A stretch of DNA of 64,000 bases from an uncultured Spirochaetales bacterium. Its GTDB lineage: Bacteria; Spirochaetota; Spirochaetia; DSM-27196; DATKUC01. Below, piece by piece: positions 41,564 through 59,532 of this stretch (position 1 is its first letter; each line of letters opens with the position of its first letter). The notes under the pieces were generated by a model. It worked only from the letters and a program-made list of their open reading frames with translations. It ran no database searches and was not told where the DNA came from. The stretch lies in NCBI GenBank assembly GCA_964553615.1, contig CAZKMA010000021.1, forward strand, positions 4,402-68,401, read 5' to 3'. The position numbers and the translations under genes were made by a program.

Positions 41564-42265
41564 GTGAGTTATTTCCGCATCCATCATCGGCTGATACCTG
41601 CCATAGCGCGGGTACTGTGTATTTGTCTCTTTCTTGCATATTCCCCCGCATTACTCTCTGCGTCCGGGGACACGCTGCTTATTGCTGAGTTCTCGGCGGA
41701 GACTCACCCCCTTATCCGGGATACAGCCGCGCCCCCGACCCGGGATGAAATAATCCGGTCCCTGCTGCATGAGGCGCAGTACGTCTTTTCGGGAATGGTG
41801 TACGGTTTCAACTTTGTGTATACTCCGGCCGACCCGGCCAGGAAAGTCTCCGACGCATTTGATCTCAAACTGATTGCCGAGATCCCGTGGGGCGATCCAC
41901 GGATGTCCGTTCTCGATACCCGGACCGCAAACGGTCTGTTCTTCGCCCGAATCACCTACCGTCCGGCGGACTTCCAGGTGGCACGGTGGGAGGCATGGCA
42001 GAGCAACTCCAATGCGCATGCCTCCGGGGAAGGGAAGGCTTCCTATCTCAAGGGATCGCCTGCACGCAGGACTGCGGTGGAAGAGGCGGTGAAAAACGCA
42101 ATCAGGCGGTACGTGAGCGGGAGAATTTACAGCAGACCCCGCGAGATTTCCGGCAGTCTGGCCCTTCTCGACGCACCGCGCATCATAGTGCAGACCGGCA
42201 ATTACGTGGCAACGGTACGGATTGCCCTCGACGTTCGATCGGTCAAACCGTATACGGTCTTCTGA
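41564..42265 (+). CDS. hypothetical secreted protein (233 aa)
   Basis: GTG start 6 nt after the rhomboid stop. An N-terminal hydrophobic signal-like segment is present (VLCICLFLAYSPALLSASG). No family recognised. Confidence 0.55.
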   Translation: MSYFRIHHRLIPAIARVLCICLFLAYSPALLSASGDTLLIAEFSAETHPLIRDTAAPPTRDEIIRSLLHEAQYVFSGMVYGFNFVYTPADPARKVSDAFDLKLIAEIPWGDPRMSVLDTRTANGLFFARITYRPADFQVARWEAWQSNSNAHASGEGKASYLKGSPARRTAVEEAVKNAIRRYVSGRIYSRPREISGSLALLDAPRIIVQTGNYVATVRIALDVRSVKPYTVF

Positions 42266-42697
42266 TTACAGGACAAGGGCAGAGGCAACAAATGCAAGGC
42301 CCCCGCCGACCAGCATTCCGACAGCAATCTCGAGTACTGAGTGCCCAATCATCTCGGAGATTTTTGTCTCTTCGTGCGCACCGAGTCTGTCAAGCACACG
42401 GTTGAAGCGAATGGACAGGCTCTGGACGTGTCCTCGCAATCGGTATGCGTCGAATATTACAATCACCGCGAAGGCCGCGGTGACTGCAAAGATATCAGAA
42501 CCGATGCCGTTCTTCATTCCGATGAGTACCGTCAGAGCCGTTACGAACGCGGAGTGCGCACTCGGGATTCCTCCGGCTGTGGCCAGATATTTCCACTCTA
42601 GCTTCCCGTCCTTGATTGAGTAATACACGAGCTTGAACACCTGGCATGCCACCTGGACTACACCAGCGGTAATGAGCACGGCGGGGAAACTGTTCAC
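42266..42697 (-). CDS. divergent PAP2 family membrane protein (DUF212)
   Basis: ...ATAGGIPSAHSAFVTALTV...FDAYRLRGH...GHSVLEIAVG matches the acid phosphatase/vanadium-haloperoxidase-related DUF212 pattern. Confidence 0.8.
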   Translation of the reverse strand: MNSFPAVLITAGVVQVACQVFKLVYYSIKDGKLEWKYLATAGGIPSAHSAFVTALTVLIGMKNGIGSDIFAVTAAFAVIVIFDAYRLRGHVQSLSIRFNRVLDRLGAHEETKISEMIGHSVLEIAVGMLVGGGLAFVASALVL

Positions 42698-42706
42698 CCG
42701 ATCCTC

Positions 42707-44227
42707 CTACAAAAGTCGGTTTCGAATTTCTGCGCTTACATAGTCCAGGATTGCCACGGTAATTGCAATAAACCAGACGGCGATTCCTGCAGAACGATAG
42801 TCCAGAAGCCGAATATACTGCACCAGGAGGAATCCTATTCCACCGCCGCCAACTAACCCGATGACGGTGGACATTCGCACGTTGATATCCCAGCGGTAGA
42901 TCGAAAACGATATAAAGGGCGATATCATCTGCGGAATCACCGCATACATGATGGTCTGGAGCCTCCCGGCGCCGGTGGCCTGGATTGCTTCGATCGGGCC
43001 GTGGTCAATTCCCTCAATGGCCTCGGAATAGAGCTTTCCAAGCGCCGCGACCGAATGCAGCGTCAGCGCGATAATGCCGGCGAATGGTCCGAGACCAACC
43101 CACACCACCGCAATCAGCGCCCAGATCAGCGGTTCGATTGATCGGACAATATTGAGAATGGTTCGTGTTATGAAATAGATGGTCAGGGTTATCCAGGACG
43201 CGGACATTATGTTCCGTGCTGCAAGAAACGCAATGGGAATTGAGAGCAGAATACCGAAGAATGTCGCCATCATTCCCATCATGATTGTCTCGACCATGCG
43301 TGCAACGGTAAGTTTGAGCGGCTCGCTCGGGAGAGGCGGACCTGCACGGAAGATCTGCCGTGCCTCTACTATGTGGTACTGCGGCCCCTTTGCGCTGGGC
43401 GGCATGATCGCGTACGGCATGGCGAAGGTGACCGAAAAACGGCCCTTTGCATCGGTCACTACGCTCAGGTATTTTCCGTTTTCTCTCGGCTGGAAATCGT
43501 TTCCGAGCGGATCGATCCACCAGATTCCTGTCCGGGTATCCGGTTTGAAATTCCCGCCACGCAGGTGGATACGCGTCCCCGGCACGATCTGGTTGTCCTG
43601 GTCCCTGGAGGACAGATTGCCGTTCGTCGGCTCGGCAATGACGTAGGGTTTGTCGGCAATCGGCTGATTGACGGGCGGCGCAGGATACTGGTTTCCGATG
43701 AGTATCTTTGCTCCTGCTTTTACGACATTGTCCTTGTACGTAATTGCCGCTTCCCACGGCCAGAGCACCTTGGACAGCGGCCCCCATGCCTTCGGCGCTT
43801 CGGTGACCATTTTCCCTACGTTGATCTCCGAAATTTGCCATCCGAGCGCAAAGAATGCAACGAGCACTGCAATGAATACCCCGGCACCTGTTTTACGCCG
43901 TCTTTTTGCCGTACGATAGGCGTCCCACGCCGTCCAGAGCCACGCAACGAGCGTTGCGACAACGACCAGTCCCACGAAGAATGGACGGCGACCAATCGCT
44001 TTCGCGAAAATGTCCCATCCTCCGGACACGCGTGGCGCAAGGTCTATTGTTCTCCAGACCAGAAGCGCAATTATGGACATCAGAGAGCCAATGATGAGCA
44101 GTCCGCGTCCGACCTGCCGGTTCAAAATCTGTCCGAGCCCGGGGAATATGAGGGACGCAATTCCCGCAACGGGTGCAGGTGTAAGGGGTCGAACAGTGTC
44201 GTCGTTTCTCAGCTTCTGCTGCTTCAT
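42707..44227 (-). CDS. phnE: phosphonate ABC transporter permease PhnE with ~240-aa N-terminal membrane/periplasmic extension
   Basis: The C-terminal 260 aa are canonical PhnE (RSIEPLIWALIAVVWVGLGPFAGIIALTLHSVAALGKLYSEAIEGID..PIEAI.ATGA). The N-terminal half adds 3-4 TM helices and a beta-rich soluble segment. Confidence 0.85.
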   Translation of the reverse strand: MKQQKLRNDDTVRPLTPAPVAGIASLIFPGLGQILNRQVGRGLLIIGSLMSIIALLVWRTIDLAPRVSGGWDIFAKAIGRRPFFVGLVVVATLVAWLWTAWDAYRTAKRRRKTGAGVFIAVLVAFFALGWQISEINVGKMVTEAPKAWGPLSKVLWPWEAAITYKDNVVKAGAKILIGNQYPAPPVNQPIADKPYVIAEPTNGNLSSRDQDNQIVPGTRIHLRGGNFKPDTRTGIWWIDPLGNDFQPRENGKYLSVVTDAKGRFSVTFAMPYAIMPPSAKGPQYHIVEARQIFRAGPPLPSEPLKLTVARMVETIMMGMMATFFGILLSIPIAFLAARNIMSASWITLTIYFITRTILNIVRSIEPLIWALIAVVWVGLGPFAGIIALTLHSVAALGKLYSEAIEGIDHGPIEAIQATGAGRLQTIMYAVIPQMISPFISFSIYRWDINVRMSTVIGLVGGGGIGFLLVQYIRLLDYRSAGIAVWFIAITVAILDYVSAEIRNRLL

Positions 44228-45033
44228 TTTTCACCATCCTCTTCTGCTGCACTCATCCCAGTCAGCGGCCCGGTGTTTACCCGGACGGCCTCCTCGCCGT
44301 AGATTTCCTTGAACTGATCATCCGTCATCTTGCGGATGTCGTCGCGGGTGCCTTCGTACACGACGCGGCCGTCGCGCAGGCCGATAACCTGCGTTGAATA
44401 TCGCTGCACGAGGTCCAGGTAGTGAAGACTGCATATGATGGTCATGCCCTCTTCCCGGTTCAGCGTTTCCAGATAGCCGAGGATGGTGTGCGCAAGCACC
44501 GGATCGAGACTTGCCACCGGCTCATCGGCAAGAATGATTGAGGGCTGTTGCATGAGTGCTCGGGCAATTCCCACGCGCTGCTGCTGGCCTCCGGAGAGCT
44601 CGCTGGCCCGCTTCCGCGCCTGATCGGTCAATCCAACCCTCCTGAGTGCCTGCGTTGCCAGTTCACGGTCCTCCCGGGGGAATCGGTGAAGCAGACTTGT
44701 GAGGGTTCCGACGTACCCGAGCCGACCAGCCAGAACGTTTGTAAGAACACTCGACCGCCGAACCAGGTTGAAGTGTTGAAAGATCATTCCAATGCGGCGT
44801 CGTATGGTTCTGAGACCGGCGGAGTCGGCGGCTGTGACATCTGTTCCATCCCATATTATCTGGCCGCCGCTCGGCTCAATGAGCCGATTTATGCAGCGCA
44901 GAAGGGTTGATTTCCCCGATCCCGACAGTCCGATGACGACCAGGAATTCACCTTCCTTCACGGTGAAGCTTACATCCTGAAGGGCGCGCGTGCCGTCGTC
45001 ATACACTTTGGTGAGATTGCGTATTTCAAGCAT
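44224..45033 (-). CDS. phnC: phosphonate ABC transporter ATP-binding protein
   Basis: Walker [10 protein letters not shown], signature LSGGQQQR and Walker B ILADEP, with a PhnC-type N-terminus ([16 protein letters not shown]). It overlaps phnE by 4 nt. Confidence 0.9.
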
Positions 45034-45066
45034 GAAGTGTATCCGCTCCTATGGTTGTTGTTGGAA

Positions 45067-45103
45067 TAAAAAAGAAAGGCCACCCCGGCATGACAGGGTG
45101 TGG
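45067..45103 (-). terminator. intra-operon hairpin + U-run after phnD (attenuating terminator)
   Basis: On the minus strand, ccacaccc..ggggtgg is followed by cctttctttttta. A second hairpin (tggacggc...gccgtcca) lies just upstream of it. Confidence 0.45.
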
Positions 45104-45164
45104 AGCCGTCGGGGTAGCCTCGGACGTAATTGGACGGCAGCCAGGCGGCGGCCGTCCAGCGCCG

Positions 45165-46070
45165 TTACTTCATGAGATCTTCGATCTTGACTCCCGATGC
45201 CTGCAGCACTTGCCGGAACGGATCGTAGAAGCTGTCCCCCTGCTTTTCCAACCCGGTCCACTGATATGCCTGATTCAGCGCCTTCTTGCCCTCTTCGGTC
45301 TTTGAAATTGCGAGCAGCGCATTGGTGAGCTGGTCCTGGATGTCCTGCGGCACTCCAGGCGAAAACTGAACACCATCGTTCGGTATGTTAACGGAGACGT
45401 TAATGACCTTGACCTTGTCGTTTACGTCCGGATGGTCCTTCTTTATGCTTTGTCGCGCATCTACGAACGTCGCGCCGGCATCCACGTCTCCGTTGTAGAC
45501 AGCGGTGGCGACAGCGGTATGTCCGCCGGCGTCCACAATGCGCTTCAGATCCGTGTCCGGATTAATTCCGTTCGCCCGCATTGTGAGCTCGGGAATGATC
45601 CATCCGCTGGTAGAGAGCGGGTCAGGCCGTGCAAACGTTTTCCCCTTCAGATCTGCAAGGGTATTGATTCCACTGTTCACGTTTGCAATGATCTGACCAT
45701 TGTAGTACGGCGATCCGAACCTGACCGCTACAAGGGCGGCCTTTGCAACGCCACGGTCGGCGGCCAGAACGTATGCAAACGTGGCAAGCGAGGCCATGTG
45801 GGCCTTTGGCGGCTTGCTCGACAGCGCTTCGATGACGCCCGCATAGTCGGTAGCCACCATTACCTTCACATAGAGACCGGTCTGCTTGAGAATAAGGTCC
45901 GCAACCGAGTTCCCTCCGGCTACGATCTTCTGCGTATCCCCCGACGGTACGAACGCCCAGATGATGGGGTTCTCTTCACTTCCGAGCTTTGGCGGCTCTT
46001 TTGCCCCCGAAGCCATGGCGAGCCCGGCTACTGTTGCCAGCATAACGAGCACGACGAATACTCTCTTCAT
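45165..46070 (-). CDS. phnD: phosphate/phosphite/phosphonate ABC transporter substrate-binding protein
   Basis: Signal peptide MKRVFVVLVMLATVAGLAMA and PhnD-like blocks (FVPSGD...ATFAYV...GWIIPE). The ATG at 46070 is preceded by AGGAGG. Confidence 0.85.
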   Translation of the reverse strand: MKRVFVVLVMLATVAGLAMASGAKEPPKLGSEENPIIWAFVPSGDTQKIVAGGNSVADLILKQTGLYVKVMVATDYAGVIEALSSKPPKAHMASLATFAYVLAADRGVAKAALVAVRFGSPYYNGQIIANVNSGINTLADLKGKTFARPDPLSTSGWIIPELTMRANGINPDTDLKRIVDAGGHTAVATAVYNGDVDAGATFVDARQSIKKDHPDVNDKVKVINVSVNIPNDGVQFSPGVPQDIQDQLTNALLAISKTEEGKKALNQAYQWTGLEKQGDSFYDPFRQVLQASGVKIEDLMK

Positions 46071-46116
46071 GGCGAAACCTCCTGTGTTGTCTTGAGGACC
46101 CTGTAACCTCTCCATG

Positions 46117-47025
46117 TTATGAGAGTATTAGTGTAACAGGGAATTCCAGAATACAACAGGCTCCATTTTCATTTCGCAGCGTTAGTGACCCGTGAAAATG
46201 GGAGGCAATATCCCGTAAACACGAGAGGGAGTTCCCGACCTCTGCGGTGTCGCGCACGAACGTATCCGGAAATCCTGGCCCGCGATCGCAAAATCGGATT
46301 GTAAGCCCGTCTTCTTCGGCTGTGAGCTCGAGCGAGAACCATGGTGGAGCGTCTTTCTGTCTGCCGTACGCGAGCATATTCGAGGTCATTTTCGCAACAG
46401 CAAGTCCCAACTGAATGGCGGTTTCCGGTTCAACCGTGCAGCGATCAAACTCCGTCTCCCATTCGCCCTCTATTCCGGGTGGAAACAGATCCGGGATGAT
46501 CGTCTGGAAGTACGCGCCAAGCTCGGTTCGCGACGGAACCTGCTGGCCGTATGCACTCTCGTACAGGAGTGGGAGTATTGCGCTCGAAGAGGTGCTATCT
46601 GATCTGTCCAGCAGGGAAATCGTCTGGCGTACAGTGGCGCCGATCCTGCTGCGCAGGTAGTCCCGCTCTCCGGAAGTCTTCAAGAGTACCGATTTCAGAT
46701 CCGCCCTCTCCTGAAGAGTACGCACCAGTGTTCCAACGAGTATCCCGATGATCATGATGGCAACAAGGGGAACCATATAGTGCAGAAGGAGACTGCCGAG
46801 GGCTACACGGTCCGTCCGGGAGGCAATTACCAGGGTAACCGGCACGTTGATGACGGAAAGGAAACCGCCGGCCCAGATTCGTGAGGTCGCCGCCAGGGAA
46901 ACCGGAATCAACGCCAGGAATGCCGCCGGTATTGGCCAGGATGCAATGAGCGGGAAGAGCATGACGAATGCGATGTAGAGGATCAGTGCAACTGCAAAGC
47001 GCCAGTAGGCGCGTGACCAGTTCAT
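46117..47025 (-). CDS. membrane histidine-kinase-like protein (HisKA_2/HWE layout) lacking the phospho-acceptor His
   Basis: Four N-terminal TM helices. The DHp position reads ERDYLRSRIGATVRQTISLL where E[IL]HHRVKNNLQ.I.SLL is expected. The N-box Asn (MTSNMLAYG) and G1 (CDRGPGFP) are present. Confidence 0.65.
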   Translation of the reverse strand: MNWSRAYWRFAVALILYIAFVMLFPLIASWPIPAAFLALIPVSLAATSRIWAGGFLSVINVPVTLVIASRTDRVALGSLLLHYMVPLVAIMIIGILVGTLVRTLQERADLKSVLLKTSGERDYLRSRIGATVRQTISLLDRSDSTSSSAILPLLYESAYGQQVPSRTELGAYFQTIIPDLFPPGIEGEWETEFDRCTVEPETAIQLGLAVAKMTSNMLAYGRQKDAPPWFSLELTAEEDGLTIRFCDRGPGFPDTFVRDTAEVGNSLSCLRDIASHFHGSLTLRNENGACCILEFPVTLILS

Positions 47026-47026
47026 G

Positions 47027-48292
47027 CTATAGAGTCACCCGAATCCAGGTACCGAGTCCCGGCCGTGTACGTATTTCCAGCATTCCGCCGAGTTCCTTCA
47101 CGTTGCGGCCCACCCGCATAAGCTCCGTGCTCGGCCCATCCAGAGGGGCTGGGCCGTTCAGCCGGGCGTCGATGCATTCAATGCAGTTTTCTGATTCACA
47201 ATCAAAGCAGTATTCGAGGCCGGGCCCCGTATCCTGCACGGTTATTGACGCGCGTTCTCCTGCACGCTCAATCTCCGCGCGAATGACCGGGAGTTCACCT
47301 CGGGGAGGTAATTCGGCGACTGACGTACAGGAAGTACGAAGAACATCTTCTACAACGCTGAGGATCTTTGCGCGGGACCCCAGATAGGTCGGCTCGGCCG
47401 TTGGTTTGAACTGGAACACAATCTGTTTCCCGAACTTCGGGTCCACGCGGAAGATATAGATGGCGGACTCTGTGAGCATATTGAGATCGAGGATCTCCTG
47501 TTCGGTGTGGGAGGGTGCGGTAGTTACGTAACGAACCAGGTCGATGCGTCTGCTGATCCGTGCGACGACGTCTTCCAGGCGATCCAGCTTGTTCATATCC
47601 GGTGCATCATTCGAGTCTCGCAGTGCCTTCAATTCCCTTGTTGCCGCACTCGCCAGGTTCAAATCATTCTTCAGGTCGTGGGCAAGACCGGCGGTGTTCT
47701 TGCCGAACTCGACAAACGGCATATCTACCGCCATCTGATTTCTCAGTGCATCGCGCTCAGCGGTTGCATTTCGAAGGTCCTCCTCAAAGACGAGCCAGAG
47801 AAACATGACCACCACGGCGACCAGAATCACACCCGAAAGAAAGTTGCTGAACTCATTGTGATGAATGAGATTTCCCGCGACAAGCGCGCCGAGAGTGAGC
47901 GCTCCTATCACGCCGATCTTGATCCAGCGTCCGCGGTCGAGGAGACCGTATTTCAAGAGCAGGAAAGTGCCGATGGCGATGATTGTCTCACCTCCGGCCG
48001 CCACATCTCTCAGACTCATGATGTAAATGAGCCCTTCAACGATCAGCACTGAGACCTGAATGTACTTGCCGGCATTTTTCTCCGGAGCCAGGAACAGGAC
48101 GATGGCGAGAACGGTCGGAATGCCAACCCCGATGATTGTCGGGGAGAGCAGGATTTCCAGAATTGTTTTGTGGTTGTACAGGAGGTACCCGAACGCATCG
48201 ACGGCCATGGCGCCACCGAAGAAGAATATGAGCAGCACATTGATCTTCTGGTACTTCGTCAGACCGCCACGGGTTCGTGATCTCTCCATCAA
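47027..48292 (-). CDS. membrane sensor histidine kinase with H-box but atypical ATP-binding domain (4-Cys insert)
   Basis: Five to six TM helices and an H-box AGLAHDLKNDL. The N-box position reads VVEDVLRTS, with no Asn. G1 is QDTGPGL, followed by CFDCESENCIEC. There is no GxGxG G2 box. Confidence 0.7.
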   Translation of the reverse strand: MMERSRTRGGLTKYQKINVLLIFFFGGAMAVDAFGYLLYNHKTILEILLSPTIIGVGIPTVLAIVLFLAPEKNAGKYIQVSVLIVEGLIYIMSLRDVAAGGETIIAIGTFLLLKYGLLDRGRWIKIGVIGALTLGALVAGNLIHHNEFSNFLSGVILVAVVVMFLWLVFEEDLRNATAERDALRNQMAVDMPFVEFGKNTAGLAHDLKNDLNLASAATRELKALRDSNDAPDMNKLDRLEDVVARISRRIDLVRYVTTAPSHTEQEILDLNMLTESAIYIFRVDPKFGKQIVFQFKPTAEPTYLGSRAKILSVVEDVLRTSCTSVAELPPRGELPVIRAEIERAGERASITVQDTGPGLEYCFDCESENCIECIDARLNGPAPLDGPSTELMRVGRNVKELGGMLEIRTRPGLGTWIRVTL

Positions 48293-48353
48293 TGCTCATT
48301 ATATGGGCGCAATTTTGAATGTAAAGAGGAGATCAACCGTTCCACGAAGGACG

Positions 48354-50045
48354 CTAGAGCAGATTCCGTTCGCGGAGTCTCTTCGCAATTTGATCGAAGC
48401 TGATCCCGTACTGCTCGGCGATGTCCCTGGCGAAACTCTTGCCTTCCGGGGGACCGCTGCGGATGTGGTAGGTGCGAACGGCGGACGCCGATCCGGCGTC
48501 CTCCCGGATTCCGGCAACGAGACTTCCCAGGCGGCTTTTCCCCTGAAACTCCCGGTTCAGAGACTCGATCCGTTCAGCCAGCCCGTGAAGGTGGGTGGCA
48601 AAGATCCCGCGTGTACCGAGCACGCACAGGGCCCGAACGATATCCTCGGCAAGGTATTCGCCCTCTCCCGGGCTCGTGCTGGTCAGAGATTCGTTCAACA
48701 GAATGACCGAACGACTGGTAATCTCTTCAAACATGCGTGCAAACCGTTCTGCCTCTTCGCCGAGCCTGCCGGTATTCAGCAGCCCGCGTTCTTCCGCAGG
48801 GAAATGAGTCACAATCCAGTCGGCCGGGCTCAATGCAGCCGAACGTGCAGGAACGAAGATGCCGCACTGGGCAAGTACCTGGAGTAAGCCGATTCCTTGA
48901 GTGAAGGTTGTCTTTCCGCCCTGGTTGGGCCCGGTGAGAATCTGGATTCTGCTCTCATCGTTGAAATATGCGCTATTCAGCACCAGGTCTTCTGAAATGT
49001 CGGGCGGGGCCTGCCCATGCGCATCGTGGGGCACAAGACGGAGAGCCAGGACGATATTGTAAAAGTCCGCAGCTTCCAGATGGCGGTCGTCGATGGGCCG
49101 GATCGCCGGCTTGCACACCGGGAGCCCCGCCTTCTCGATTGTCTGGAGCAGGGTCAATGCTCCGAGGTAGAATGCCGCTTCATGCTGGAGCGTTTTCAGG
49201 ACTGCAGTGTTCGTCGTGATGTAGCGGTTGAGAACCCGGACCATGGGCCGGACGGTGGAACCAAGAAGCTGCTCCAGATCCTGAAACAACGGCGCAAGAG
49301 GGACCTTGAGCCGCGGATCGTGTGCGTATTCGTCTGGAACCGGGGATGAATGCAGTGGAGTGGAAGTCTTGAATGCGTCGTCATCCGGCCGTCCGAAGAG
49401 TCGGGGAAGCAGAGACTTCTCCTGGTACTCCTGTTCGTTGATGGAGATCAGCGTCGCATCCACCGGACGAAGACGTTCGTCCAGATTAATGCCGATCGTG
49501 ACGCTTCGCTTGCGGCGCAATCCCTCCCGCAGGGTCGGAAGCTCCCGACGAAGGCTCACGAACTGGTCCGTGCGCGTCGTTTTCTCCAGATGGTCACGCA
49601 GGAGAAGCAGACCCTGCGAACGGACCTCCGAATCAACGTGATGAAATGCCTCGTGGAGAGTATCCAGACACTCCACGTACAGTTCGAGCTCGCCGAGTCG
49701 CCAGATAGCCTCCTGAAGGGGAGAGCGGGAATCCCGCCGCGTATCCGCGAAAAGCGCAATCTCGCTGATTTTCGGAATAATCTGATGGAACGCGGTCGCT
49801 ATTGCGGGAGATCGGTACAGGTCCTCGAATATGTCCTGGCGGTATCGAATTACGGCTTCTTCTGTCGGTGGCGAGGAGAGGATCTCGAGTACGTGCTGGT
49901 AGTTTATCCCCTCCCGGCTCATTCTCCGGGCAATCTCATCGAGCCCGAGGTCTTTTACGGTCTCATCGGCCAATTGCCGGGAATTGACGCGAGCCTCCGC
50001 CTGTTGTGGAAAGAGGAGACTTGTTCGAAACGCATCTTGTCGCAC
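48354..50045 (-). CDS. MutS-related ATPase (MutS domains III + V only; no mismatch-binding or Smr domain)
   Basis: Walker A TGPNQGGKTTF, then Walker B ILLNE and TH..L as in the MutS ATPase domain. The helical N-terminal core is MutS_III-like. GTG start. Confidence 0.8.
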   Translation of the reverse strand: MRQDAFRTSLLFPQQAEARVNSRQLADETVKDLGLDEIARRMSREGINYQHVLEILSSPPTEEAVIRYRQDIFEDLYRSPAIATAFHQIIPKISEIALFADTRRDSRSPLQEAIWRLGELELYVECLDTLHEAFHHVDSEVRSQGLLLLRDHLEKTTRTDQFVSLRRELPTLREGLRRKRSVTIGINLDERLRPVDATLISINEQEYQEKSLLPRLFGRPDDDAFKTSTPLHSSPVPDEYAHDPRLKVPLAPLFQDLEQLLGSTVRPMVRVLNRYITTNTAVLKTLQHEAAFYLGALTLLQTIEKAGLPVCKPAIRPIDDRHLEAADFYNIVLALRLVPHDAHGQAPPDISEDLVLNSAYFNDESRIQILTGPNQGGKTTFTQGIGLLQVLAQCGIFVPARSAALSPADWIVTHFPAEERGLLNTGRLGEEAERFARMFEEITSRSVILLNESLTSTSPGEGEYLAEDIVRALCVLGTRGIFATHLHGLAERIESLNREFQGKSRLGSLVAGIREDAGSASAVRTYHIRSGPPEGKSFARDIAEQYGISFDQIAKRLRERNLL

Positions 50046-50055
50046 ACTATAAACT

Positions 50056-50090
50056 ACAGCAGCACCGTGCTGCTGTCAAAAGACAGCAGC
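50056..50090. promoter_or_regulatory. two mutually exclusive perfect hairpins sharing the segment GCTGCTGT
   Basis: acagcagcac/gtgctgctgt (50056-50076) and gctgctgtc-aaaa-gacagcagc (50069-50090) overlap in the central arm. They lie between the BON stop and the MutS-like start. Confidence 0.5.
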
Positions 50091-50140
50091 GGAAAACAAC
50101 TGCGTCGAGGTATAGGCGTGAGCAGGCGTGCAAACCGCGG

Positions 50141-50395
50141 TCAGGCGGTTCTGGAATTCGTCCGGTTCTTAACTGCGAGGTCGTTCTGGACCTCAATATC
50201 GGGCCCGGCCGCTCCCCGAGAGGTTCGCGACACATGCTCCTTTTCTTCTTCCGTGTTCACGGATCCGAAGATGTGGAGGACCGATTTCTTGCGAAAGAGC
50301 GAGCCAACTTTCCGTTCTTCGATGTTGACATTTGTTGAGTGAATCAGGGGATCGTTGGCCAGCTCATCCAGTATGCGTCTGATGAGCTCGTTCAT
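50141..50395 (-). CDS. BON domain protein (84 aa)
   Basis: MNELIRRILDELANDPLI.STNVNIEE......L.GSVNTEEEKE...........V.NDL fits the BON pattern. The ATG at 50395 is preceded by AGGGGGA. Confidence 0.65.
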   Translation of the reverse strand: MNELIRRILDELANDPLIHSTNVNIEERKVGSLFRKKSVLHIFGSVNTEEEKEHVSRTSRGAAGPDIEVQNDLAVKNRTNSRTA

Positions 50396-50481
50396 AGTAT
50401 TCCCCCTGAGATTATTATAAACCTCAATGGCGGAATGCGCACGAAAAAACACGTTCCGCGGTTCCAGGCATCTGCTCCGTG

Positions 50482-50510
50482 TTGACAGCGAAACAGCTTC
50501 CGAAGATAAT
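50482..50510 (+). promoter_or_regulatory. near-consensus sigma70 promoter for tRNA-Val (TTGACA-17 nt-GATAAT)
   Basis: TTGACA at 50482-50487 and GATAAT at 50505-50510, with an exact 17-nt spacer, about 40 nt upstream of the tRNA 5' end. Confidence 0.65.
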
Positions 50511-50549
50511 ATCCTCGTATGACCGTCCGAACCGGGGAGCGGTTTTCGT

Positions 50550-50621
50550 GGGCGATTAACTCAGTGGGAGAGTGCTTCCTTCACACGGAAGAAGTCAGCA
50601 GTTCAAATCTGCTATCGCCCA
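50550..50621 (+). tRNA. tRNA-Val (anticodon CAC)
   Basis: Manual cloverleaf fold. Acceptor GGGCGAT/ATCGCCC, D arm ACTC-AGTGGGA-GAGT, and anticodon arm CTTCC-TTCACAC-GGAAG. Variable loop AAGTC, T arm AGCAG-TTCAAAT-CTGCT, discriminator A. The 3' CCA is not encoded. Confidence 0.9.
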
Positions 50622-50695
50622 CGAAGGCCGTAGCCTCCCCGGCCCAGTCTGCAAATCCCTCAATGATTCATGGCCACACCTGCTGCCCACCGACG

Positions 50696-50704
50696 TGATA
50701 CAAT
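50696..50704 (+). promoter_or_regulatory. extended -10 element (TGaTACAAT) upstream of the SDR gene
   Basis: TG at 50696-50697 and TACAAT at 50699-50704, 22 nt upstream of the TTG start at 50726. No good -35 is present. Confidence 0.35.
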
Positions 50705-50725
50705 GTTCGTACGGGAGACAAGCCA

Positions 50726-51547
50726 TTGGCAGATCAGGCATTGCGCGGCAAAGCAGTAGTTGTGACCGGTTCGAGCCGCGGCATTGGACGCGAGACGGCA
50801 CTTCGTTTGGGACTGCTCGGTGCCGGTGTCGTCATAAACGGCCGTGATACGGCTGTGCTCGAAAGGTCACGGGATTATCTTCTCCAACACGGCGTAGATG
50901 TGAATGTCTGCCAGGGCGATGTGACCAATCCTGAGGACTGTCGACGGCTGGTAGAGACGTGCGTAACCCGCTATGGAAGACTCGATGTATTGGTAAACAA
51001 CGCGGGAGTATCCATGCGAGGCACGTTTTCCGACCTCGTTCCTGAGGTGGTCGATCGCGTGTTGACCACAAACATTGCCGGAGCAGTGCTTCCATCCGTT
51101 GCTGCAATGTCCGAGCTCCGCAGGTCCGGCGGCTCGATCGTCTTCATCTCAAGTCTCGCGGCACTGCGCGGTTTCCCCGGAGTCTCTATCTACTCGGCGG
51201 CAAAGATGTCACTGACCGCAATTGCCCAATCCCTCGAAGCTGAGTTGTATGGTTCGGGCGTCCATGTCGGGATCGTCTATCTCGGTTTCACCGAGAATGA
51301 TCCCGAAAAGCGTTCCCTCTCCTCCGACGGATCGGAGATTTCCGTTCGGAGGAGGGCGCACATGACACAGGCTCAGGCTGCCGAACGTATTGTCAGCCTG
51401 GTGCTCCGGAGGAAACGGACTAGTGTCCTGACCATCGAGGGCCGACTTCTGGGTTTGCTTCAGAGGATGTTCCCGCGGCTCGTTCAGTTTGTCATGAACC
51501 GGTCCGGGGGGAAGATTCACCTGGAGGCAAACCATGACCGACCTTGA
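50726..51547 (+). CDS. short-chain dehydrogenase/reductase (SDR)
   Basis: TTG start. VVVTGSSRGIGRETA (TGxxxGxG), NNAG, and catalytic S...YSAAK. Confidence 0.85.
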   Translation: MADQALRGKAVVVTGSSRGIGRETALRLGLLGAGVVINGRDTAVLERSRDYLLQHGVDVNVCQGDVTNPEDCRRLVETCVTRYGRLDVLVNNAGVSMRGTFSDLVPEVVDRVLTTNIAGAVLPSVAAMSELRRSGGSIVFISSLAALRGFPGVSIYSAAKMSLTAIAQSLEAELYGSGVHVGIVYLGFTENDPEKRSLSSDGSEISVRRRAHMTQAQAAERIVSLVLRRKRTSVLTIEGRLLGLLQRMFPRLVQFVMNRSGGKIHLEANHDRP

Positions 51548-53066
51548 CAGTTGGATTGCAGATCGCACCTTTCATCACTCACAGTTTCAAAATGTTGGTG
51601 ATCTTGTTGCCCGGAAGGAGGCTCTCGGGGTCACCATTAGCCTCTGTTTCCCCGCGTTGAACGAAGAAAAGACCATTGGCCGGGAGATTCGCGTGCTGAA
51701 GCGTGAGTTTATGGAGCGCCATCGCCTGATCGACGAGATTGGCGTTGTGGACAGTGGCAGCACCGATCGGACGCGAGAGACAAGTGAGCGCGCCGGTGCG
51801 ACAGTATTCCTTGCTTCGGACTATCTCCCCGAGTTTGGACCCCGACGGGGAAAAGGCGAGAATCTCTGGAAGAGTCTCTATCTCTTTTCCGGCGATATTA
51901 TTGTGTGGGTTGATTCCGATATCCGGAATATTCATCCAAAGTTTGTTTACGGCCTGCTTGGACCTCTTCTGGAATATCCGGAGATAGGCTACGTGAAGGC
52001 GTTCTATCGTCGTCCTGTTCAGTCCGGCAGACGGATGGTTCCTGGAGGCGGCCGCGTAACCGAGCTGCTGGTTCGACCGTTTCTCAATCTTCTCTACCCC
52101 GACCTGGCGCTTCTCGCGCAGCCGCTTTCCGGCGAATATGCGGGCCGTCGGGCAATTCTCGAGCAGGTACCGTTTTTCAGCGGGTACGGCGTCGAGATCG
52201 GGCTTCTCATTGACATTGAACACCGGTTCGGGTTGCGGGCAATGGCACAGGTGGACATGGACGAGCGCGTTCACCGGAATCAAAATATTGAGAGTCTGCG
52301 CCGAATGTCCTACGTCATTCTCTCGGTGCTCATTAAGCGGTCGGAGCAGCTCGGCAAGCTTGCGCTGCTCGAAGGACTCGGGCACCAGATGAACATCGTA
52401 CAGCGCCAGGGAACGCACTATCTTCGTGCAACCGAGGAGGTGCACGGCGTCGAGCGTCCACCAATGATTACGGTGCATTCGTATCAGGAGCAGCGTGGCA
52501 TCCAGGAAGACGACACCACATTGATCGGAACCTTCATACAGTCCAATTCGACCATCGTTCCCGCAATCAGTGATCTTCTGGACACCGCCATTGTTCGACT
52601 CACCCTGTCCGCATCCGAGCGGGACGCGGCGCTCGGCGAACTCGTCGACCTTGTTCCCGACGATGTTCTGACCGGCAGTCGTTCACGGATTCTCGCCGGG
52701 CTGCTCGAGCGGGAAGAGCGGATGACAACCGGAGTAGGGCAGGGACTCGCGATACCGCACCTGGTCAGTTCGGAGATCCGTTCGCTGACCCTGGTAATTG
52801 GCGCTTCATCCACGGGGGTGGATTTCAACTCCCTGGACCAGATCCCGGTGAAGCTCATCTTCGTCATTCTTGCACCCGAAAACATGCGTTCCCGGTATCT
52901 GCAGGTTCTCGCGGGGCTTGCCCGACTCCTGCGGGAGGAGCAGATAGTTCAACGGGCGTTGACTTCTTCAACTGCAGAAGAGCTCATTGCTCTCATGAAA
53001 AAGTATGAGGCGCTCATCCGCCTGAAACGTGAGCTCGAACCGGGATCGCCCTCCCCGGGAACATAA
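51534..53066 (+). CDS. gpgS: glucosyl-3-phosphoglycerate synthase-like GT81 glycosyltransferase fused to a PTS EIIA(Ntr/Fru)-type domain
   Basis: N-terminal 330 aa: ISLCFPALNEE...RGKGENLWKSL...IIVWVDSDI...VKAFYRRP...GGGRVTELLVRPFLNLLYPDLA...QPLSGEYAGRR...GYGVEIGLLID (GpgS blocks, DxD). C-terminal 150 aa: TGVGQGLAIPH...VKLIFVILAP (PTS_EIIA_2 with the phosphorylatable His). It overlaps the SDR gene by 14 nt. Confidence 0.75.
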   Translation: MTDLDSWIADRTFHHSQFQNVGDLVARKEALGVTISLCFPALNEEKTIGREIRVLKREFMERHRLIDEIGVVDSGSTDRTRETSERAGATVFLASDYLPEFGPRRGKGENLWKSLYLFSGDIIVWVDSDIRNIHPKFVYGLLGPLLEYPEIGYVKAFYRRPVQSGRRMVPGGGRVTELLVRPFLNLLYPDLALLAQPLSGEYAGRRAILEQVPFFSGYGVEIGLLIDIEHRFGLRAMAQVDMDERVHRNQNIESLRRMSYVILSVLIKRSEQLGKLALLEGLGHQMNIVQRQGTHYLRATEEVHGVERPPMITVHSYQEQRGIQEDDTTLIGTFIQSNSTIVPAISDLLDTAIVRLTLSASERDAALGELVDLVPDDVLTGSRSRILAGLLEREERMTTGVGQGLAIPHLVSSEIRSLTLVIGASSTGVDFNSLDQIPVKLIFVILAPENMRSRYLQVLAGLARLLREEQIVQRALTSSTAEELIALMKKYEALIRLKRELEPGSPSPGT

Positions 53067-55412: not shown

Positions 55413-57361
55413 ATTGTACCCCGGCGCATGAGCCAGACGGTCTGATACGGTTCCAGAACCAGCGGTTCGACTGCCGAATGCGGCGAGTTCGTAATAAGAT
55501 CCGTAAACGAAATTCCTTCTCCCTCCGCTCGCAGAATACTTCCCGGGAAGTTGATTTTCTGCTCGCCAAAATTCGCCAGCACGAACAACCGCGACGCAGC
55601 ATGTTCTCGGACAAAGCCGAGGACGTGAGGATTCCTGGTATCTGGAAACTGTGTCGGAACGGAAGCTGCAAACACCGGGTGACCTTTCCTTATCCGGATC
55701 ATCTGCTCGAGCCTGGTAAAGACTCTGCCGACCGGACTGTGAGGCTCGGCGCGGAGTCGGTCGCGCTCCGGATCGTATTTCGGGCGATGAACCCAACGTG
55801 AGTCGTGCGCCTTGACCGGGTCTTTCGTGAACGAGTAGTCATTGAGGGTGGCAAGTTCGTCTCCAAGGTAGATCAGCGGAATTCCGCCGACCGCGAGGAT
55901 GATGCTGTGAACGAGAATTATCCGGCGAACCGCGAGTTCGACCTCGACCTCAGTCTCTTCTGCCAGCGCTTTCTCGAGTCCCGATAGAGATGCGCAGGTG
56001 CCTGAAATGCGGCAGTCTCGTGTTTCGGGATTATACTGGAACGGCATTCCGCGCGCAAAGCTTCCCGGGAAAACACCCGTGTAAAAGTCGTTCAGAAACA
56101 TGCGGTGGTCGAAACCATTTTTCCCCATAGCGGCCGCGTCTTCGTCGGAAAAGGTCCAACCGATATCATCGTGACATCGCACGTAGTTGACCCACGAACA
56201 ACTGTTCGGAATTTCAAAACGCTTCTGCATCGAGTAGCGCAGTAAGTCTATCTCCCGCGTGGCGAGTCCCTCCCACAGGAGAGCCATGAGAAGCGGATTG
56301 TAAGAGAGGGCACATTCATCCTTGCTGATGTACTGTTCCACCTCATCAGGGTGCACAATAGCCTCGGACTTGAACATGAGCGACGGACAGGCAAGCGCTG
56401 AGACCGCGTTGAACGCCTGAATGAGCGTGTGCGCCTGCGGAAGATTCTCACACGTGGTGCCCTCCTCCTTCCATGTAAAGGCAAGCGCGTCCAGTCGAAG
56501 AACATCCACGCCGCAGTTGGCGAGGAAGATCATCTCCTCGCACATGCTGCGGAACACTTCCGGATTATGATAGTTCAGATCCCACTGGTAACTGTTGAAG
56601 GTTGTCCACACCCACTTCTGCACATCTTCACGGTAGGTGAAATTTCCACGCCGAACCTGGGGGAATATTTCCCGAAGGTTTTTTTCGAACCTGTCAGGCA
56701 TGGTCCTGTCCGGAAAGAGGAAATAGTAATCCTCGTAGGCCGGGTCGCCCTGCAGCGCTCGAACCGCCCACTCGTGTTCATCGGAGGTGTGATTGAAAAC
56801 AAAATCCACTACCAGGCTGATTTCTGCACCGTGGAGCTTATCCGTGAGCGTGCGAAGATCCGCTATGGTTCCGAGATTCGGTTGCACTGCGCGGTAGCTG
56901 GAGACTGCGTAACCTCCATCGTTTTCCCCTTCAGGACAGGCAAAGAACGGCATGAGATGGAGATACGTCACGCCAAGTTGCTTCAGGTAAGGAATGCGGT
57001 CTTGCATTCCTGCAAGGTCTTTGGCGTACAAGTCGACATAACAGACCGCACCGAGCATCTGCTCGGACGTGAACCATGACGGAGACTCCTCCCGAATACG
57101 GTCAAGAGATCTCAGCTCTTTCGGCCTTGCAGACCAACCATTCAGTGCGGTCTTGAGTATTCGTTCAAGGTGGTAGAAAAAGTCGAATTGATTTCCATAG
57201 AGTCCGAGGAGCAACCGGAACAGTCGTTCGAAGTGATGCTCGAGCCGTTGCGCAAATAGCTGGAAGCTTTGCAGCTCCGCTTCCGGCAGATTTTCTCCAA
57301 GGCGGGGCAGGAGGCGATCAAGGGTCCGTCGTGCATCGGGAGACATGACCCTATTAAACAA
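55409..57361 (-). CDS. amylosucrase (GH13 sucrose glucosyltransferase)
   Basis: Collinear with my recollection of Neisseria amylosucrase over the whole length: VCYVDL.A.DL.G...IPYL..LG.TYLHLMP.F.CPEG..DGGYAVSSYR, VVDF.FNHTS.EHEWA, TFNS.QWDLNY.NP.VF, LR.DA.AF.WK..GT.CENLPQAH, NYVR.HDDIGW. Confidence 0.9.
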   Translation of the reverse strand: MFNRVMSPDARRTLDRLLPRLGENLPEAELQSFQLFAQRLEHHFERLFRLLLGLYGNQFDFFYHLERILKTALNGWSARPKELRSLDRIREESPSWFTSEQMLGAVCYVDLYAKDLAGMQDRIPYLKQLGVTYLHLMPFFACPEGENDGGYAVSSYRAVQPNLGTIADLRTLTDKLHGAEISLVVDFVFNHTSDEHEWAVRALQGDPAYEDYYFLFPDRTMPDRFEKNLREIFPQVRRGNFTYREDVQKWVWTTFNSYQWDLNYHNPEVFRSMCEEMIFLANCGVDVLRLDALAFTWKEEGTTCENLPQAHTLIQAFNAVSALACPSLMFKSEAIVHPDEVEQYISKDECALSYNPLLMALLWEGLATREIDLLRYSMQKRFEIPNSCSWVNYVRCHDDIGWTFSDEDAAAMGKNGFDHRMFLNDFYTGVFPGSFARGMPFQYNPETRDCRISGTCASLSGLEKALAEETEVEVELAVRRIILVHSIILAVGGIPLIYLGDELATLNDYSFTKDPVKAHDSRWVHRPKYDPERDRLRAEPHSPVGRVFTRLEQMIRIRKGHPVFAASVPTQFPDTRNPHVLGFVREHAASRLFVLANFGEQKINFPGSILRAEGEGISFTDLITNSPHSAVEPLVLEPYQTVWLMRRGTI

Positions 57362-57499
57362 CAGAACCGTTGCCGTTTCAAGTTGCTTCCGGTTTCCGAC
57401 GCCGGGACGTCATTTTTTCCGTTGGACTTCCGGAAAACGGGCGCAGTGATTATCGTTTTCAGATATAATGGTGAATCGGGGCGCTATAACGCGGTTGAT

Positions 57500-59140
57500 A
57501 TGAGCACATGGACAGTTCCCGGAGCGGTCTTCGGCTTCGGCAGTACAGTATTTCTCTTCGGCGTATTCCTGTATCTCTATATTCGCGAACATCGGCAACC
57601 GCTATTCTGGTTGACCATTGCGTGGGGTCTCTACGGTGTCCGCTATGTTATAGAGTTGCTGGAGATAGTGATTGGTTCGTCCACGCTGGAGCGGACACTC
57701 ATTCAGGTTCTCGTCATCCTCAGCGCCAACTTCCTCGTGCTCGGCACTCATACCCTTACCGGCCGGAGAGGGACTTTCCGTTTGACCGCCGTCTCTCTGG
57801 TTGCCGTTGTATTTGTTATTGGGTTCTCCTTTTTCCCGGGGCTCAATCTTGCTTCAACTTTGCTCGCCTTTGCTTTTACCGGTAGTCTGTACATCTGGAT
57901 CGGGGTAGTGTTCCTTGGTGTTCAGTCGGAGGCTTCTATCGGGTCCCGAGCCACGGCCGTGTTGTTTATTCTCTGGGGGCTCCATAAGTTTGACTATCCG
58001 TTTCTCCGGCAGCACCCGGTCGCTGCGGGATGGGGTTTCCTTCTCGCTGCGCTTCTGGGCATGGGCACCGCAATCTCGATTCTCCTGCACTATCTGGATG
58101 TGAGCAAGAACGCACTGGTCCGGAGTGAAAAGCTGTACAGGTTGCTCTCCGAACGTGCTCACGACATGATATTCCGGTACACTTTCGACCCCAGTCCGTC
58201 TTTTGAGTATGTGAGTCCGTCCAGCACAACCCTCGTCGGCTACTCGCCGGAGGAACATTATGCAGATCCTTCGCTTGCCGGCAAAATAGTGCATCCCGAC
58301 GATCGAGCCATTTTTACCTCGATACCGCAGTCGAACACGGGGGATATCCGCACCTTCCGCGTCATTCACCGGGATGGACGTGTTATCTGGCTCGAACAGT
58401 TATCCACGATCCTGCGCAACGAAAAAGGACGAACCATTGCGGTCGAGGGAACAATCCGGGATGTCTCGACGCGTGTTGAAAGGGAGGAGATGCTGCGCCG
58501 AGGCGAAGAACATCTGCATAGCGCTGTGCGCGAAAAGGATACGCTTCTTCAGGAACTCCATCATCTGGTAAATAATAATCTGGCCATCATACTCAGCCTT
58601 GTAGATTTCGAGATGCGGAAATACGGTGGCGCGGTCATGCCGGCACTTCGGAAAATCCAGCGCCGCGTAATGTCCGTTGCGTTGATCCACTCGCTTCTCT
58701 ACAACGGCAAGGATTCCCGGAGTCTGGATTTCCGGCAATATTGTCAATCTCTCGTGGAACATATCCGGGTAACATATCCGAAACCCTCGGCACGGCATGA
58801 GATCGTCGTTTCGATTGCCGCAGGAAATCTGGATATCGACCGGGCGAAGTCGTGTGGACTGATCATATCGGAGCTCGTCCCGAATGCGCTCGAACACGCG
58901 TTCGGGACCGGTGAGACTCAAGGAAGGGTGGAAGTCACATTCTCATGCGAGTCCGAAAGGTGTACTCTTGTCGTCTGTGATAACGGCTGTGGTTTCCCGC
59001 CGGACTTTGACTGGCGTCGGAAAACGAACTCCGGCCTCTTTATCGTGAGTTCCCTGTGTGACCAGCTCGACGCTCACATGAACATTCAATCAACACCCGG
59101 TCTTCGCGTGGAAGTTTCATTTCCCAGGAAAGGGAGGTAG
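57500..59140 (+). CDS. 7-TM sensor histidine kinase (PAS + HisKA_2 + HATPase_c)
   Basis: Seven N-terminal TM helices and a PAS region (MIFRYTFDP...HPDD...GRVIWLEQ). The H-box is ELHHLVNNNL, the N-box ELVPNALEHAF and G1 CDNGCGFP. The first in-frame ATG not overlapping the amylosucrase gene is chosen. Confidence 0.85.
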   Translation: MSTWTVPGAVFGFGSTVFLFGVFLYLYIREHRQPLFWLTIAWGLYGVRYVIELLEIVIGSSTLERTLIQVLVILSANFLVLGTHTLTGRRGTFRLTAVSLVAVVFVIGFSFFPGLNLASTLLAFAFTGSLYIWIGVVFLGVQSEASIGSRATAVLFILWGLHKFDYPFLRQHPVAAGWGFLLAALLGMGTAISILLHYLDVSKNALVRSEKLYRLLSERAHDMIFRYTFDPSPSFEYVSPSSTTLVGYSPEEHYADPSLAGKIVHPDDRAIFTSIPQSNTGDIRTFRVIHRDGRVIWLEQLSTILRNEKGRTIAVEGTIRDVSTRVEREEMLRRGEEHLHSAVREKDTLLQELHHLVNNNLAIILSLVDFEMRKYGGAVMPALRKIQRRVMSVALIHSLLYNGKDSRSLDFRQYCQSLVEHIRVTYPKPSARHEIVVSIAAGNLDIDRAKSCGLIISELVPNALEHAFGTGETQGRVEVTFSCESERCTLVVCDNGCGFPPDFDWRRKTNSGLFIVSSLCDQLDAHMNIQSTPGLRVEVSFPRKGR

Positions 59141-59142
59141 CT

Positions 59143-59532
59143 GTGGCAGAGCCTGCGATCATTCGAGTGCTTGTCGTTGAAGACGAAGCGTTGATCCGGA
59201 TGACACTCCGGTTCATGCTCGAGGACCTCGGTTGTGAGGTGGTCGGGGAAACTTCCTACGGCGAGGATGTGCGCATGATGTGCGAGGAGGTATCTCCGGA
59301 GGTGGTATTCATGGACATCCGGCTCAAGGGAACTATGGACGGAATCCAGGCGGCCGGCCAGGTGAACGAAGCAGGCAATGCTGCGATTGTCTTCATGAGC
59401 GCCTACGATTACGCCGGAAGAACTCAGGCCGGCAATCTGAGGAATGTCGTGGCCTTTGTCGGAAAGCCGTTTCTGCAAGAAGACATCGAAACCGTACTTC
59501 CGGCAGTTCGGAAACTCAGGAGTACGGATTAG
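59143..59532 (+). CDS. stand-alone response regulator receiver domain (CheY-like)
   Basis: GTG start 2 nt after the kinase stop. VLVVEDE...VVFMDIRL (phospho-Asp)...VFMSAY...GKPF. Confidence 0.85.
   Translation: MAEPAIIRVLVVEDEALIRMTLRFMLEDLGCEVVGETSYGEDVRMMCEEVSPEVVFMDIRLKGTMDGIQAAGQVNEAGNAAIVFMSAYDYAGRTQAGNLRNVVAFVGKPFLQEDIETVLPAVRKLRSTD

Follow-up and report, generated by a model that had tools for sequence, protein, structure and literature searches.

In the genome of an uncultured Spirochaetales bacterium, two genes for membrane proteins of the histidine-kinase superfamily follow each other in the same orientation, on the minus strand of contig CAZKMA010000021.1, a single nucleotide apart, and each lacks motifs of the canonical enzyme that the other retains. 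This raises the question of what two such proteins, named A and B here, could do together. The analysis was made on a 64-kilobase (kb) stretch of that contig, the window, and on related contigs and proteins; motif and gene calls were made from sequence only, all of it metagenomic. The answer favored here, to which we would give an even chance of being right, is that A and B are two subunits of a conserved, co-translated membrane signaling module assembled from two degenerate proteins of the histidine-kinase superfamily that differ in type. The two genes are as follows.

47027-48292, minus strand: gene A, a membrane protein of 421 residues from a TTG start, in which about five hydrophobic helices (residues 1-168) precede a DHp-like region and a CA domain that is degenerate
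46117-47025, minus strand: gene B, a 302-residue membrane protein with three to four hydrophobic helices, a HisKA_2-like helical hairpin without the histidine, and a HATPase_c domain

Residues of A are numbered from the ATG at 48289 (420 residues), as in a near-identical database copy of the protein (P0001).

Motif states of the two proteins

The segments of A that correspond to the kinase motifs are these.

47660-47707, minus strand: H-box, FGKNTAGLAHDLKNDL, residues 195-210, aligned to ZraS, with the codon of His204 (CAC) at 47678-47680
47318-47359, minus strand: N-box, SVVEDVLRTSCTSV, degenerate, with the first Asn replaced by Asp and the second by Thr
47219-47233, minus strand: G1 box, DTGPG, residues 353-357, retained
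47174-47209, minus strand: a CxxCx4CxxC insert (Cys4), CFDCESENCIEC, which opens the ATP lid and separates G1 from the F-box
47111-47173, minus strand: degenerate lid, IDARLNGPAPLDGPSTELMRV, as long as a canonical F-box/TTK/G2 stretch (for example EVFDIGVTSKPEGSGFGLYNV), with all nucleotide-binding residues replaced

The H-box of A matches that of ZraS (AGVAHEIRNPL) residue for residue, placing His204 on the ZraS histidine. Further along the protein, the second Asn of the N-box, the one to which homology to EnvZ and HK853 assigns the coordination of Mg-ATP, is Thr. Also, the F-box/TTK/G2 segment is of normal length but reads IDARLNGPAPLDGPSTEL, with LNGPAP in the place of IGxTTK and GPSTEL in the place of GSGxGL, so that no G2 box is left. 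The Pfam scores lie below the gathering thresholds, being 15.3 bits against 26.9 for HisKA and 15.1 against 26.4 for HATPase_c, and an orthologue (P0002) stands above the HATPase_c threshold with 30.5 bits. Thus, from the features of a canonical HisKA kinase, A presents the histidine and G1 and lacks the N-box asparagines, the TTK and G2 motifs, and passing Pfam scores. Judged by these motifs, A bears every mark of a pseudokinase.

The corresponding segments of B, and the kinase of the same window with which it was compared, are the following.

46627-46668, minus strand: segment equivalent to the H-box, ERDYLRSRIGATVR, without a histidine
46363-46401, minus strand: N-box, AVAKMTSNMLAYG, with the Asn kept (AKMTSNMLAYG) and the Glu four residues earlier replaced by Lys
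46216-46287, minus strand: G1 and G2, with G1 as DRGPG at 46273-46287 and a reduced G2, VGNSLSCL, at 46216-46239
57269-59140, plus strand: canonical PAS-HisKA_2-HATPase_c kinase of 623 residues, about 10 kb from the pair, with a response regulator that starts 2 nucleotides after it

Histidines occur in B only at positions 82, in the membrane part, and 276 and 278, in the CA domain, with none in residues 83-275. Its segment ERDYLRSRIGATV aligns with the H-box of the HisKA_2 kinase of the window (REKDTLLQELHHLVN) and with that of EL346 (AEVQHRVKNHL), and the phospho-acceptor column is occupied by Ala or Arg in the window copy and by Glu or Ala in the orthologues. This was obtained in three alignments (MAFFT with the orthologues, HMMER against EL346, and MAFFT with the HisKA_2 kinase of the window), none of which places a histidine in that column. 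A profile of B matches EL346 (PDB codes: 4r39 and 4r3a) with E=6e-7 over both the hairpin and the CA domain (profile positions 134-324), and the closest relative of B within the window is the HisKA_2 kinase, with an hhalign probability of 92%. Among the PDB matches of B, SpoIIAB is a weak one (E about 0.1), and the isolated hairpins of B gave no HisKA_2, HisKA_3, or HWE match in Pfam at E<=10. From these comparisons, B is of the HisKA_2 type, as EL346 is, but without the phospho-acceptor histidine.

The orthologues of B (P0005, P0006, and that of contig L001) carry TELTAN, DGGPG, and GTGL, so that the window copy differs from them by the Lys in the place of Glu and by GNSL in the place of GTGL. 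Consistently, HATPase_c scores 24.0 bits in the window copy against a cut-off of 26.4 (E=5.6e-5) and 28.8-33.8 in the orthologues, and HATPase_c_2 scores 22.2 against 27.4 and 31.6-31.9, respectively, the orthologues thus passing. The window copy also shows two 9-residue deletions relative to the orthologues (within 46483-46713, minus strand), one in each helix of the hairpin, apparently a shortening of both helices to the same extent, by which they would stay in register.

The first-pass annotation of this DNA had described the two proteins as adjacent paralogues with reciprocal defects, A having only the H-box and B only the ATPase motifs. The complementary losses stand for this genome, since His204 of A aligns with that of ZraS, the alignment of 113 members of its family shows the replacement of both N-box asparagines and the absence of G2, and B is indeed without the H-box histidine. 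However, the description of the ATP site of A had left out the retained G1 box, and that of B was too generous: the Asn of the N-box and G1 are kept, but the Glu is Lys, G2 is reduced, and the HATPase_c score is below threshold. Neither are the two close paralogues, because A is HisKA/NtrB-like and B is HisKA_2-like, and a profile-profile comparison finds only a weak similarity of the CA domains (probability 7.7%) and no detectable similarity in DHp. The junction was read correctly, with the ATG of B one nucleotide after the stop of A (CTA TAG C ATG), as was the absence of an adjacent response regulator, with phnD, phnC, and phnE as the next genes downstream.

The family of A and the history of the pair

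A profile search with A returned 821 relatives at E<1e-3, of which 124 reach E<1e-10, mostly of 400-460 residues and most of them aligned end to end; an earlier word-indexed search had given just three relatives of A and two of B, and genome and metagenome contigs, when scanned, yielded the L001 lineage alone. The named relatives come from Spirochaeta lutea, Alkalispirochaeta, and metagenome-assembled genomes of Spirochaetia and bear generic names only. No Pfam or NCBIfam model is specific to this family, and the best curated matches are AtoS, ZraS, and PrsK, of the NtrB class. Beside canonical members, no response regulator was found in five neighborhoods, the orphan status being checked in the window and in contigs L001, L010, L014, L015, and L016. 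A belongs, as a divergent member, to an uncharacterized spirochaete family of orphan HisKA/NtrB-type kinases of about 420 residues. TP0981 of Treponema pallidum, encoded next to TP0982 and TP0983, might be a member as well, a lead only, with no paper found that mentions it. A relationship to AtcS of Treponema denticola was also weighed and dropped, as this protein has an adjacent LytTR regulator and is confined to two species, and no sequence link was shown (PMC12070737).

Motif conservation was counted over 113 well-aligned members. The H-box histidine is present in 109 of them, the first Asn of the N-box in 100, the second in 108, and the Asp of G1 in 102, and 105 have a full GxGxG G2 box. 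The lid insert belongs to the family too: 59 of the 113 carry a CxxCx(3-8)CxxC motif between G1 and the F-box, 39 of these with the 2-4-2 spacing. Among the 102 members in which G1 can be located, the lid contains zero to two cysteines in 42 and four or five in 60, and never three. This all-or-none distribution is as expected of a metal-binding tetrad, and the kinase lid may accordingly contain a metal or redox site. No description of such an insert was found in the literature searched. A further member, P0014 (419 residues, from a Logan contig), has Gln at the H-box histidine, an intact N-box, G1, and G2, and only two lid cysteines, and seems to be an independent loss of the histidine in the family.

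Within this family, A groups with P0002 (57% identical) and P0003 (40%) in a rough neighbor-joining tree, un-bootstrapped and without support values. The window lineage includes contig L006, the P0002 lineage includes L001-L004, L008, and L020/L021, and P0003 corresponds to L005. Thr in the column of the second N-box Asn is found only in these three proteins among the 113, and the same three are the only ones without any remnant of G2, the members outside the clade that lack the full box keeping a partial one. The first N-box position varies in the clade (Asp, Asn, or Thr). At position 204, a histidine (CAC) is present in the window lineage only, being Gln (CAG) in P0002, L020, and P0003; the remaining positions of the H-box are conserved in the clade as PF(V/I)EFGKNTxGLxxD(L/M)KxD(L/I). 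On the other hand, the CA core is 49-61% identical, above the value of DHp, G1 and Cys4 are invariant, and drift is observed only in the part of the lid beyond Cys4. Based on the conservation of this core and the invariance of G1 and Cys4, A is not a protein in decay. The comparison of the window with L006 is uninformative for the ratio of non-synonymous to synonymous substitution rates, with 0-3 differences per gene (one synonymous and three non-synonymous in A).

The pair itself occurs in three lineages, namely the window with L006, L001-L004 with L020/L021, and L005, and the distance from the stop of A to the start of B is 1-7 nucleotides in every lineage found, down to 40% identity; the co-occurrence elsewhere by which the first-pass annotation had proposed to judge the pair is thus observed. 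The genes that surround it in the window are these.

48354-50045, minus strand: a protein with MutS domain V only, 563 residues, upstream of A
42707-46115, minus strand: phnD, phnC, and a phnE fusion, downstream of B, between B and DUF212
42266-42697, minus strand: DUF212, a divergent PAP2 phosphatase-like membrane protein, the constant downstream neighbor in all lineages, including the canonical outgroup

A comparison with the closest canonical relative allows an order of events to be proposed. P0007 has the histidine, both N-box asparagines, G1, Cys4, and G2 intact, and its locus (L010) contains the kinase, DUF212, TP_0983, and a rhomboid gene, without B and without the MutS-like gene. L001 and L020 have the arrangement MutS_V, A, B, and DUF212, to which the window adds phnDCE between B and DUF212. 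Since phnDCE is absent from the pair locus in L001 and L020 and from the outgroup L010, and phnD has a probable ribosome-binding site of its own, these genes were rejected as a conserved functional partner of the pair; they represent an insertion between B and DUF212 that is specific to one lineage. The simplest history would be that of a canonical kinase next to DUF212, which gained B and lost the ATP site of A, with phnDCE inserted afterwards and solely in the window lineage. In this history, the arrival of B coincides with the decay of A, because P0007 occupies the same locus alone and is intact.

Moreover, the family contains a second type of dead and live kinase pair. Six degenerate members (P0066, P0073, P0082, P0085, P0113, and P0153) are all without G1, G2, and Cys4, and their H-box histidine is replaced by Arg, Gln, Glu, Ile, or Met, except in P0066, which keeps it. 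In the two neighborhoods that could be read, those of P0082 and P0113, the degenerate gene runs into the start of a second gene, which encodes a fully canonical kinase of the same family. The loci of this second type are L017 (4575-7285), L018 (5001-7648), and L019 (1273-2912), and the canonical partners carry FGQNTAGLVHDFRNDV, ENIIRNSCE, DNGPGI, CRGCQRRSCLDC, and GSGIGM together with the Cys4 lid. A gene for an iron-containing alcohol dehydrogenase (Fe-ADH) and a 7TMR-DISM gene lie upstream of this pair type. Taken with A and B, the overlaps of P0082 and P0113 indicate that coupled pseudokinase-kinase pairs arose at least twice in the family, which makes a functional partnership of A and B more plausible than a chance adjacency.

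A proposed coupled module and its alternatives

For the module proposed here, the following sequence of events could be considered. The lineage of A would have gained B, and A would have become a pseudokinase by losing the Mg-binding Asn and the whole G2/TTK lid, its phospho-acceptor histidine becoming dispensable, whereas the membrane domain, the DHp surface, the CA fold, G1, and Cys4 would have stayed under selection. A would then sense through its membrane domain, through Cys4 (probably metal-binding or redox-responsive), or through both, and would transmit the signal to B by direct contact, the nucleotide-binding CA domain of B being the output. A classical His-to-Asp relay would not be the conserved output. 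The position of His204 bears most directly on this: since it is Gln in both other lineages, while the loss of Asn and G2 and the flanks of the H-box are shared, the conserved function of the pair must be independent of phosphorylation of that histidine. The phosphorylation of A by B as a conserved mechanism is, on the alignment, not supported, and the trans-phosphorylation of His204 would be a possible, lineage-specific property of this organism.

Several points weigh against the module as described. The pair-bearing lineages form one clade in the rough tree, so the link between the gain of B and the decay of A would rest on a single evolutionary event. The window lineage keeps the histidine of A, and there a classical relay is possible. 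Also, the window copy of B is eroded by the Lys, the GNSL, and the two deletions, which leaves its competence for ATP binding uncertain. The contact between A and B is one that we infer, and the AlphaFold2 models of the monomers, made from three-sequence alignments, are of low confidence, with mean predicted local distance difference test values of 46.5 for A and 52.9 for B; a Foldseek search of the PDB with the latter gave no match at E<=0.001 and was disregarded. Finally, relatives of B were found next to A-clade genes only, a provisional linkage, as it comes from the word-indexed search, which is not exhaustive.

The first-pass annotation had offered two readings, an obligate heteromeric kinase and a pseudokinase regulator acting in trans. 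For the first one, the CA domain of B would phosphorylate His204 of A in trans, as in FasBC, and the phosphate would then pass to an unlinked response regulator. The motifs of the window fit such a division, with a histidine but neither the catalytic Asn nor G2 in A, and with the Asn and G1 but no histidine in B, in genes 1 nucleotide apart; FasB and FasC provide a precedent in which the histidine is on the pseudokinase (PMC12675982). However, the Gln of both other pair-bearing lineages speaks against it as a conserved mechanism, the ATP site of the window copy of B is weakened, and the pair is without a linked response regulator in all lineages. In addition, a DHp of HisKA type in A would have to join one of HisKA_2 type in B, with no detectable similarity between them, and we know of no precedent for a mixed HisKA/HisKA_2 four-helix bundle. 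A split kinase of this kind seems improbable. A different use of B would be that of a Ser/Thr or Tyr kinase of the anti-sigma-factor type (HATPase_c_2), with A or another protein as the substrate and O-phosphorylation as the output. The orthologues of B pass the HATPase_c_2 threshold, SpoIIAB is among the weak matches, and the N-box of B follows the form ...TxNxxAYG, which we take to be anti-sigma-kinase-like. Nonetheless, the match to EL346 is much stronger and includes the hairpin, kinases of the anti-sigma type are small and soluble whereas B is membrane-anchored with a DHp-like hairpin, and no STAS, anti-anti-sigma, or linked sigma-factor gene adjoins the pair, so that this identity of B is quite improbable.

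The pseudokinase regulator fits the data better than the heteromeric kinase, although a joint action of A and B is favored over a simple regulation in trans. In its independent form, A and B would each be a decoy, like RetS or RocA, modulating a different genuine kinase encoded elsewhere, in the case of A a canonical paralogue from its family and in that of B a HisKA_2 kinase, for example the one at 57269-59140, and the two genes would be neighbors for the sake of co-regulation only. Such a role is established for RetS-GacS and RocA-CovS (PMC12189002, PMC12675982), the HisKA_2 kinase with its regulator 10 kb away is the best match of B in the window and a candidate for cross-talk, and other degenerate members of the A family directly precede a canonical family kinase. 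But the spacing of 1-7 nucleotides, kept across lineages that are 40% identical, suggests stoichiometric co-production rather than co-regulation, the 64-kb window contains no canonical paralogue of A, and B was found by the word-indexed search beside A-clade genes only. Two independent decoys are therefore unlikely. It could also be argued that both genes are non-functional relics of decaying kinases, as both window copies fall under the Pfam thresholds, catalytic residues are gone from both, and the comparison of the window with L006 is too shallow to demonstrate purifying selection. However, the frames are intact and collinear down to 40% identity, many motifs are invariant with a CA core conserved at 49-61%, and the two deletions of B affect both helices in a way that would keep the hairpin matched, making this explanation very improbable.

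Returning to the two-subunit module, a bolder form of it, which we regard as doubtful, would be a sensor without a phospho-acceptor histidine in either subunit. In this case, Cys4, as a metal or redox site in the former ATP lid of A, would gate the ATP-dependent activity of the His-less B, with an output different from His-to-Asp transfer, such as O-phosphorylation or a nucleotide-dependent binding, and the parent family would be made of spirochaete-wide kinases that use the lid as a sensor and repeatedly give rise to pseudokinase-kinase pairs.

Surroundings of the pair and comparison with known systems

Upstream of A, a promoter-like sequence is followed closely by the start codon.

48298-48325, minus strand: sigma-70-like promoter match TTTACA-16-TATAAT, 11 of 12 positions, a consensus match only, ending 9 nucleotides before the ATG of A

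No Shine-Dalgarno sequence is present between this match and the ATG, and the transcript of A and B may have little or no leader. Directly upstream, a MutS_V-only protein of 553-563 residues is encoded in all three pair-bearing lineages (L001 6279-7940; L005 2-1291); its N-terminal part of about 360 residues has no assignment, and the locus of the canonical outgroup (L010) lacks the gene. Downstream of B, translation of phnD likely begins at an internal ATG, at 46070, with AGGAGG in front of it; phnD would thus be 46 nucleotides away and not coupled to B. The phnE-like permease (42707-44227, minus strand) is a fusion of 506 residues with BPD_transp_1 restricted to residues 330-496, and its N-terminal part comprises a membrane segment that DUF5683/DUF6677 match weakly and some 250 residues without a family match. 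DUF212 is located at 5522-5962 in L010 and at 10350-10781 in L001, the gap to the preceding gene often being within 10 nucleotides, and its constancy and proximity suggest that it may form an operon with the genes of the kinase locus.

No response regulator occurs within about 8 kb of the pair in any lineage. The nearest one in the window (59143-59532, plus strand) is a single-domain protein of 129 residues paired with its own kinase, the HisKA_2 protein described above. An Rfam scan of 42000-51000 detected one tRNA gene (50550-50621, plus strand, 66 bits) and one sub-threshold small RNA match, and nothing else. The open reading frame at 51534-53066 (plus strand) corresponds, by length and position relative to the annotated near-identical contig L006, to a 510-residue fusion of glycosyltransferase-2 and PTS EIIA-2.

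Few heteromeric or pseudokinase sensor kinases are recognized, FasBC, RetS-GacS, and RocA-CovS among them, and the locus offers a natural series that goes from a canonical orphan kinase to a degenerate kinase with an acquired His-less partner, and then to lineages with and without the remaining histidine. Such a series would permit a direct test of which parts of a kinase stay needed in a heteromer. Moreover, the Cys4 insert is a candidate for a built-in metal or redox switch of kinase activity in an uncharacterized spirochaete family, which also holds a second, independent type of pseudokinase-kinase pair. All the organisms concerned are uncultured, and the comparison with characterized systems is made for A and B from their sequences alone.

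The closest parallel is FasBC of group A Streptococcus, from the three-component FasBCA system, where FasC is a proposed pseudokinase with a phosphorylated histidine and FasB provides the kinase domain, the heterodimer having been demonstrated experimentally and the CA domain of FasC being dispensable (PMC12675982). As in that system, two adjacent genes encode membrane kinase-like proteins, one of them a pseudokinase. However, the regulator gene fasA follows fasBC and no regulator is linked here, the partner that would bear the histidine has Gln in two of three lineages, and A and B come from different DHp families. In RetS-GacS of Pseudomonas aeruginosa and RocA-CovS of Streptococcus, kinase-like proteins that are not kinases bind and modulate a real one (PMC12189002, PMC12675982). 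A resembles RetS and RocA as a degenerate membrane protein of the superfamily that appears to be under selection, and RetS is among its weak PDB matches, whereas the partners of those proteins are competent and encoded elsewhere and B is His-less and translationally coupled to A.

EL346, a HisKA_2/HWE-type LOV kinase from Erythrobacter litoralis, is the protein of solved structure that matches B best over the hairpin and the CA domain, and both have a short lid with a minimal G2. Nonetheless, EL346 is soluble, has a LOV sensor, and carries the histidine of AEVQHRVKNHL, whereas B is membrane-anchored and lacks it. A parallel for an H-box that is kept while its acceptor is replaced is offered by DivL of Caulobacter, with Tyr in the place of the histidine, and by other natural His-less kinase-like regulators, in which the H-box serves protein recognition. 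DivL retains a CA domain, acts on CckA and DivK, and has no adjacent B-type gene. Finally, the family of A differs from AtoS and ZraS in its Cys4 lid insert, in its other sensor domains, and in having no NtrC-type regulator beside it, but its canonical members share with these best curated matches the H-box xGxAHExxNPL and the lid FxxTTKxxGxGLGL.

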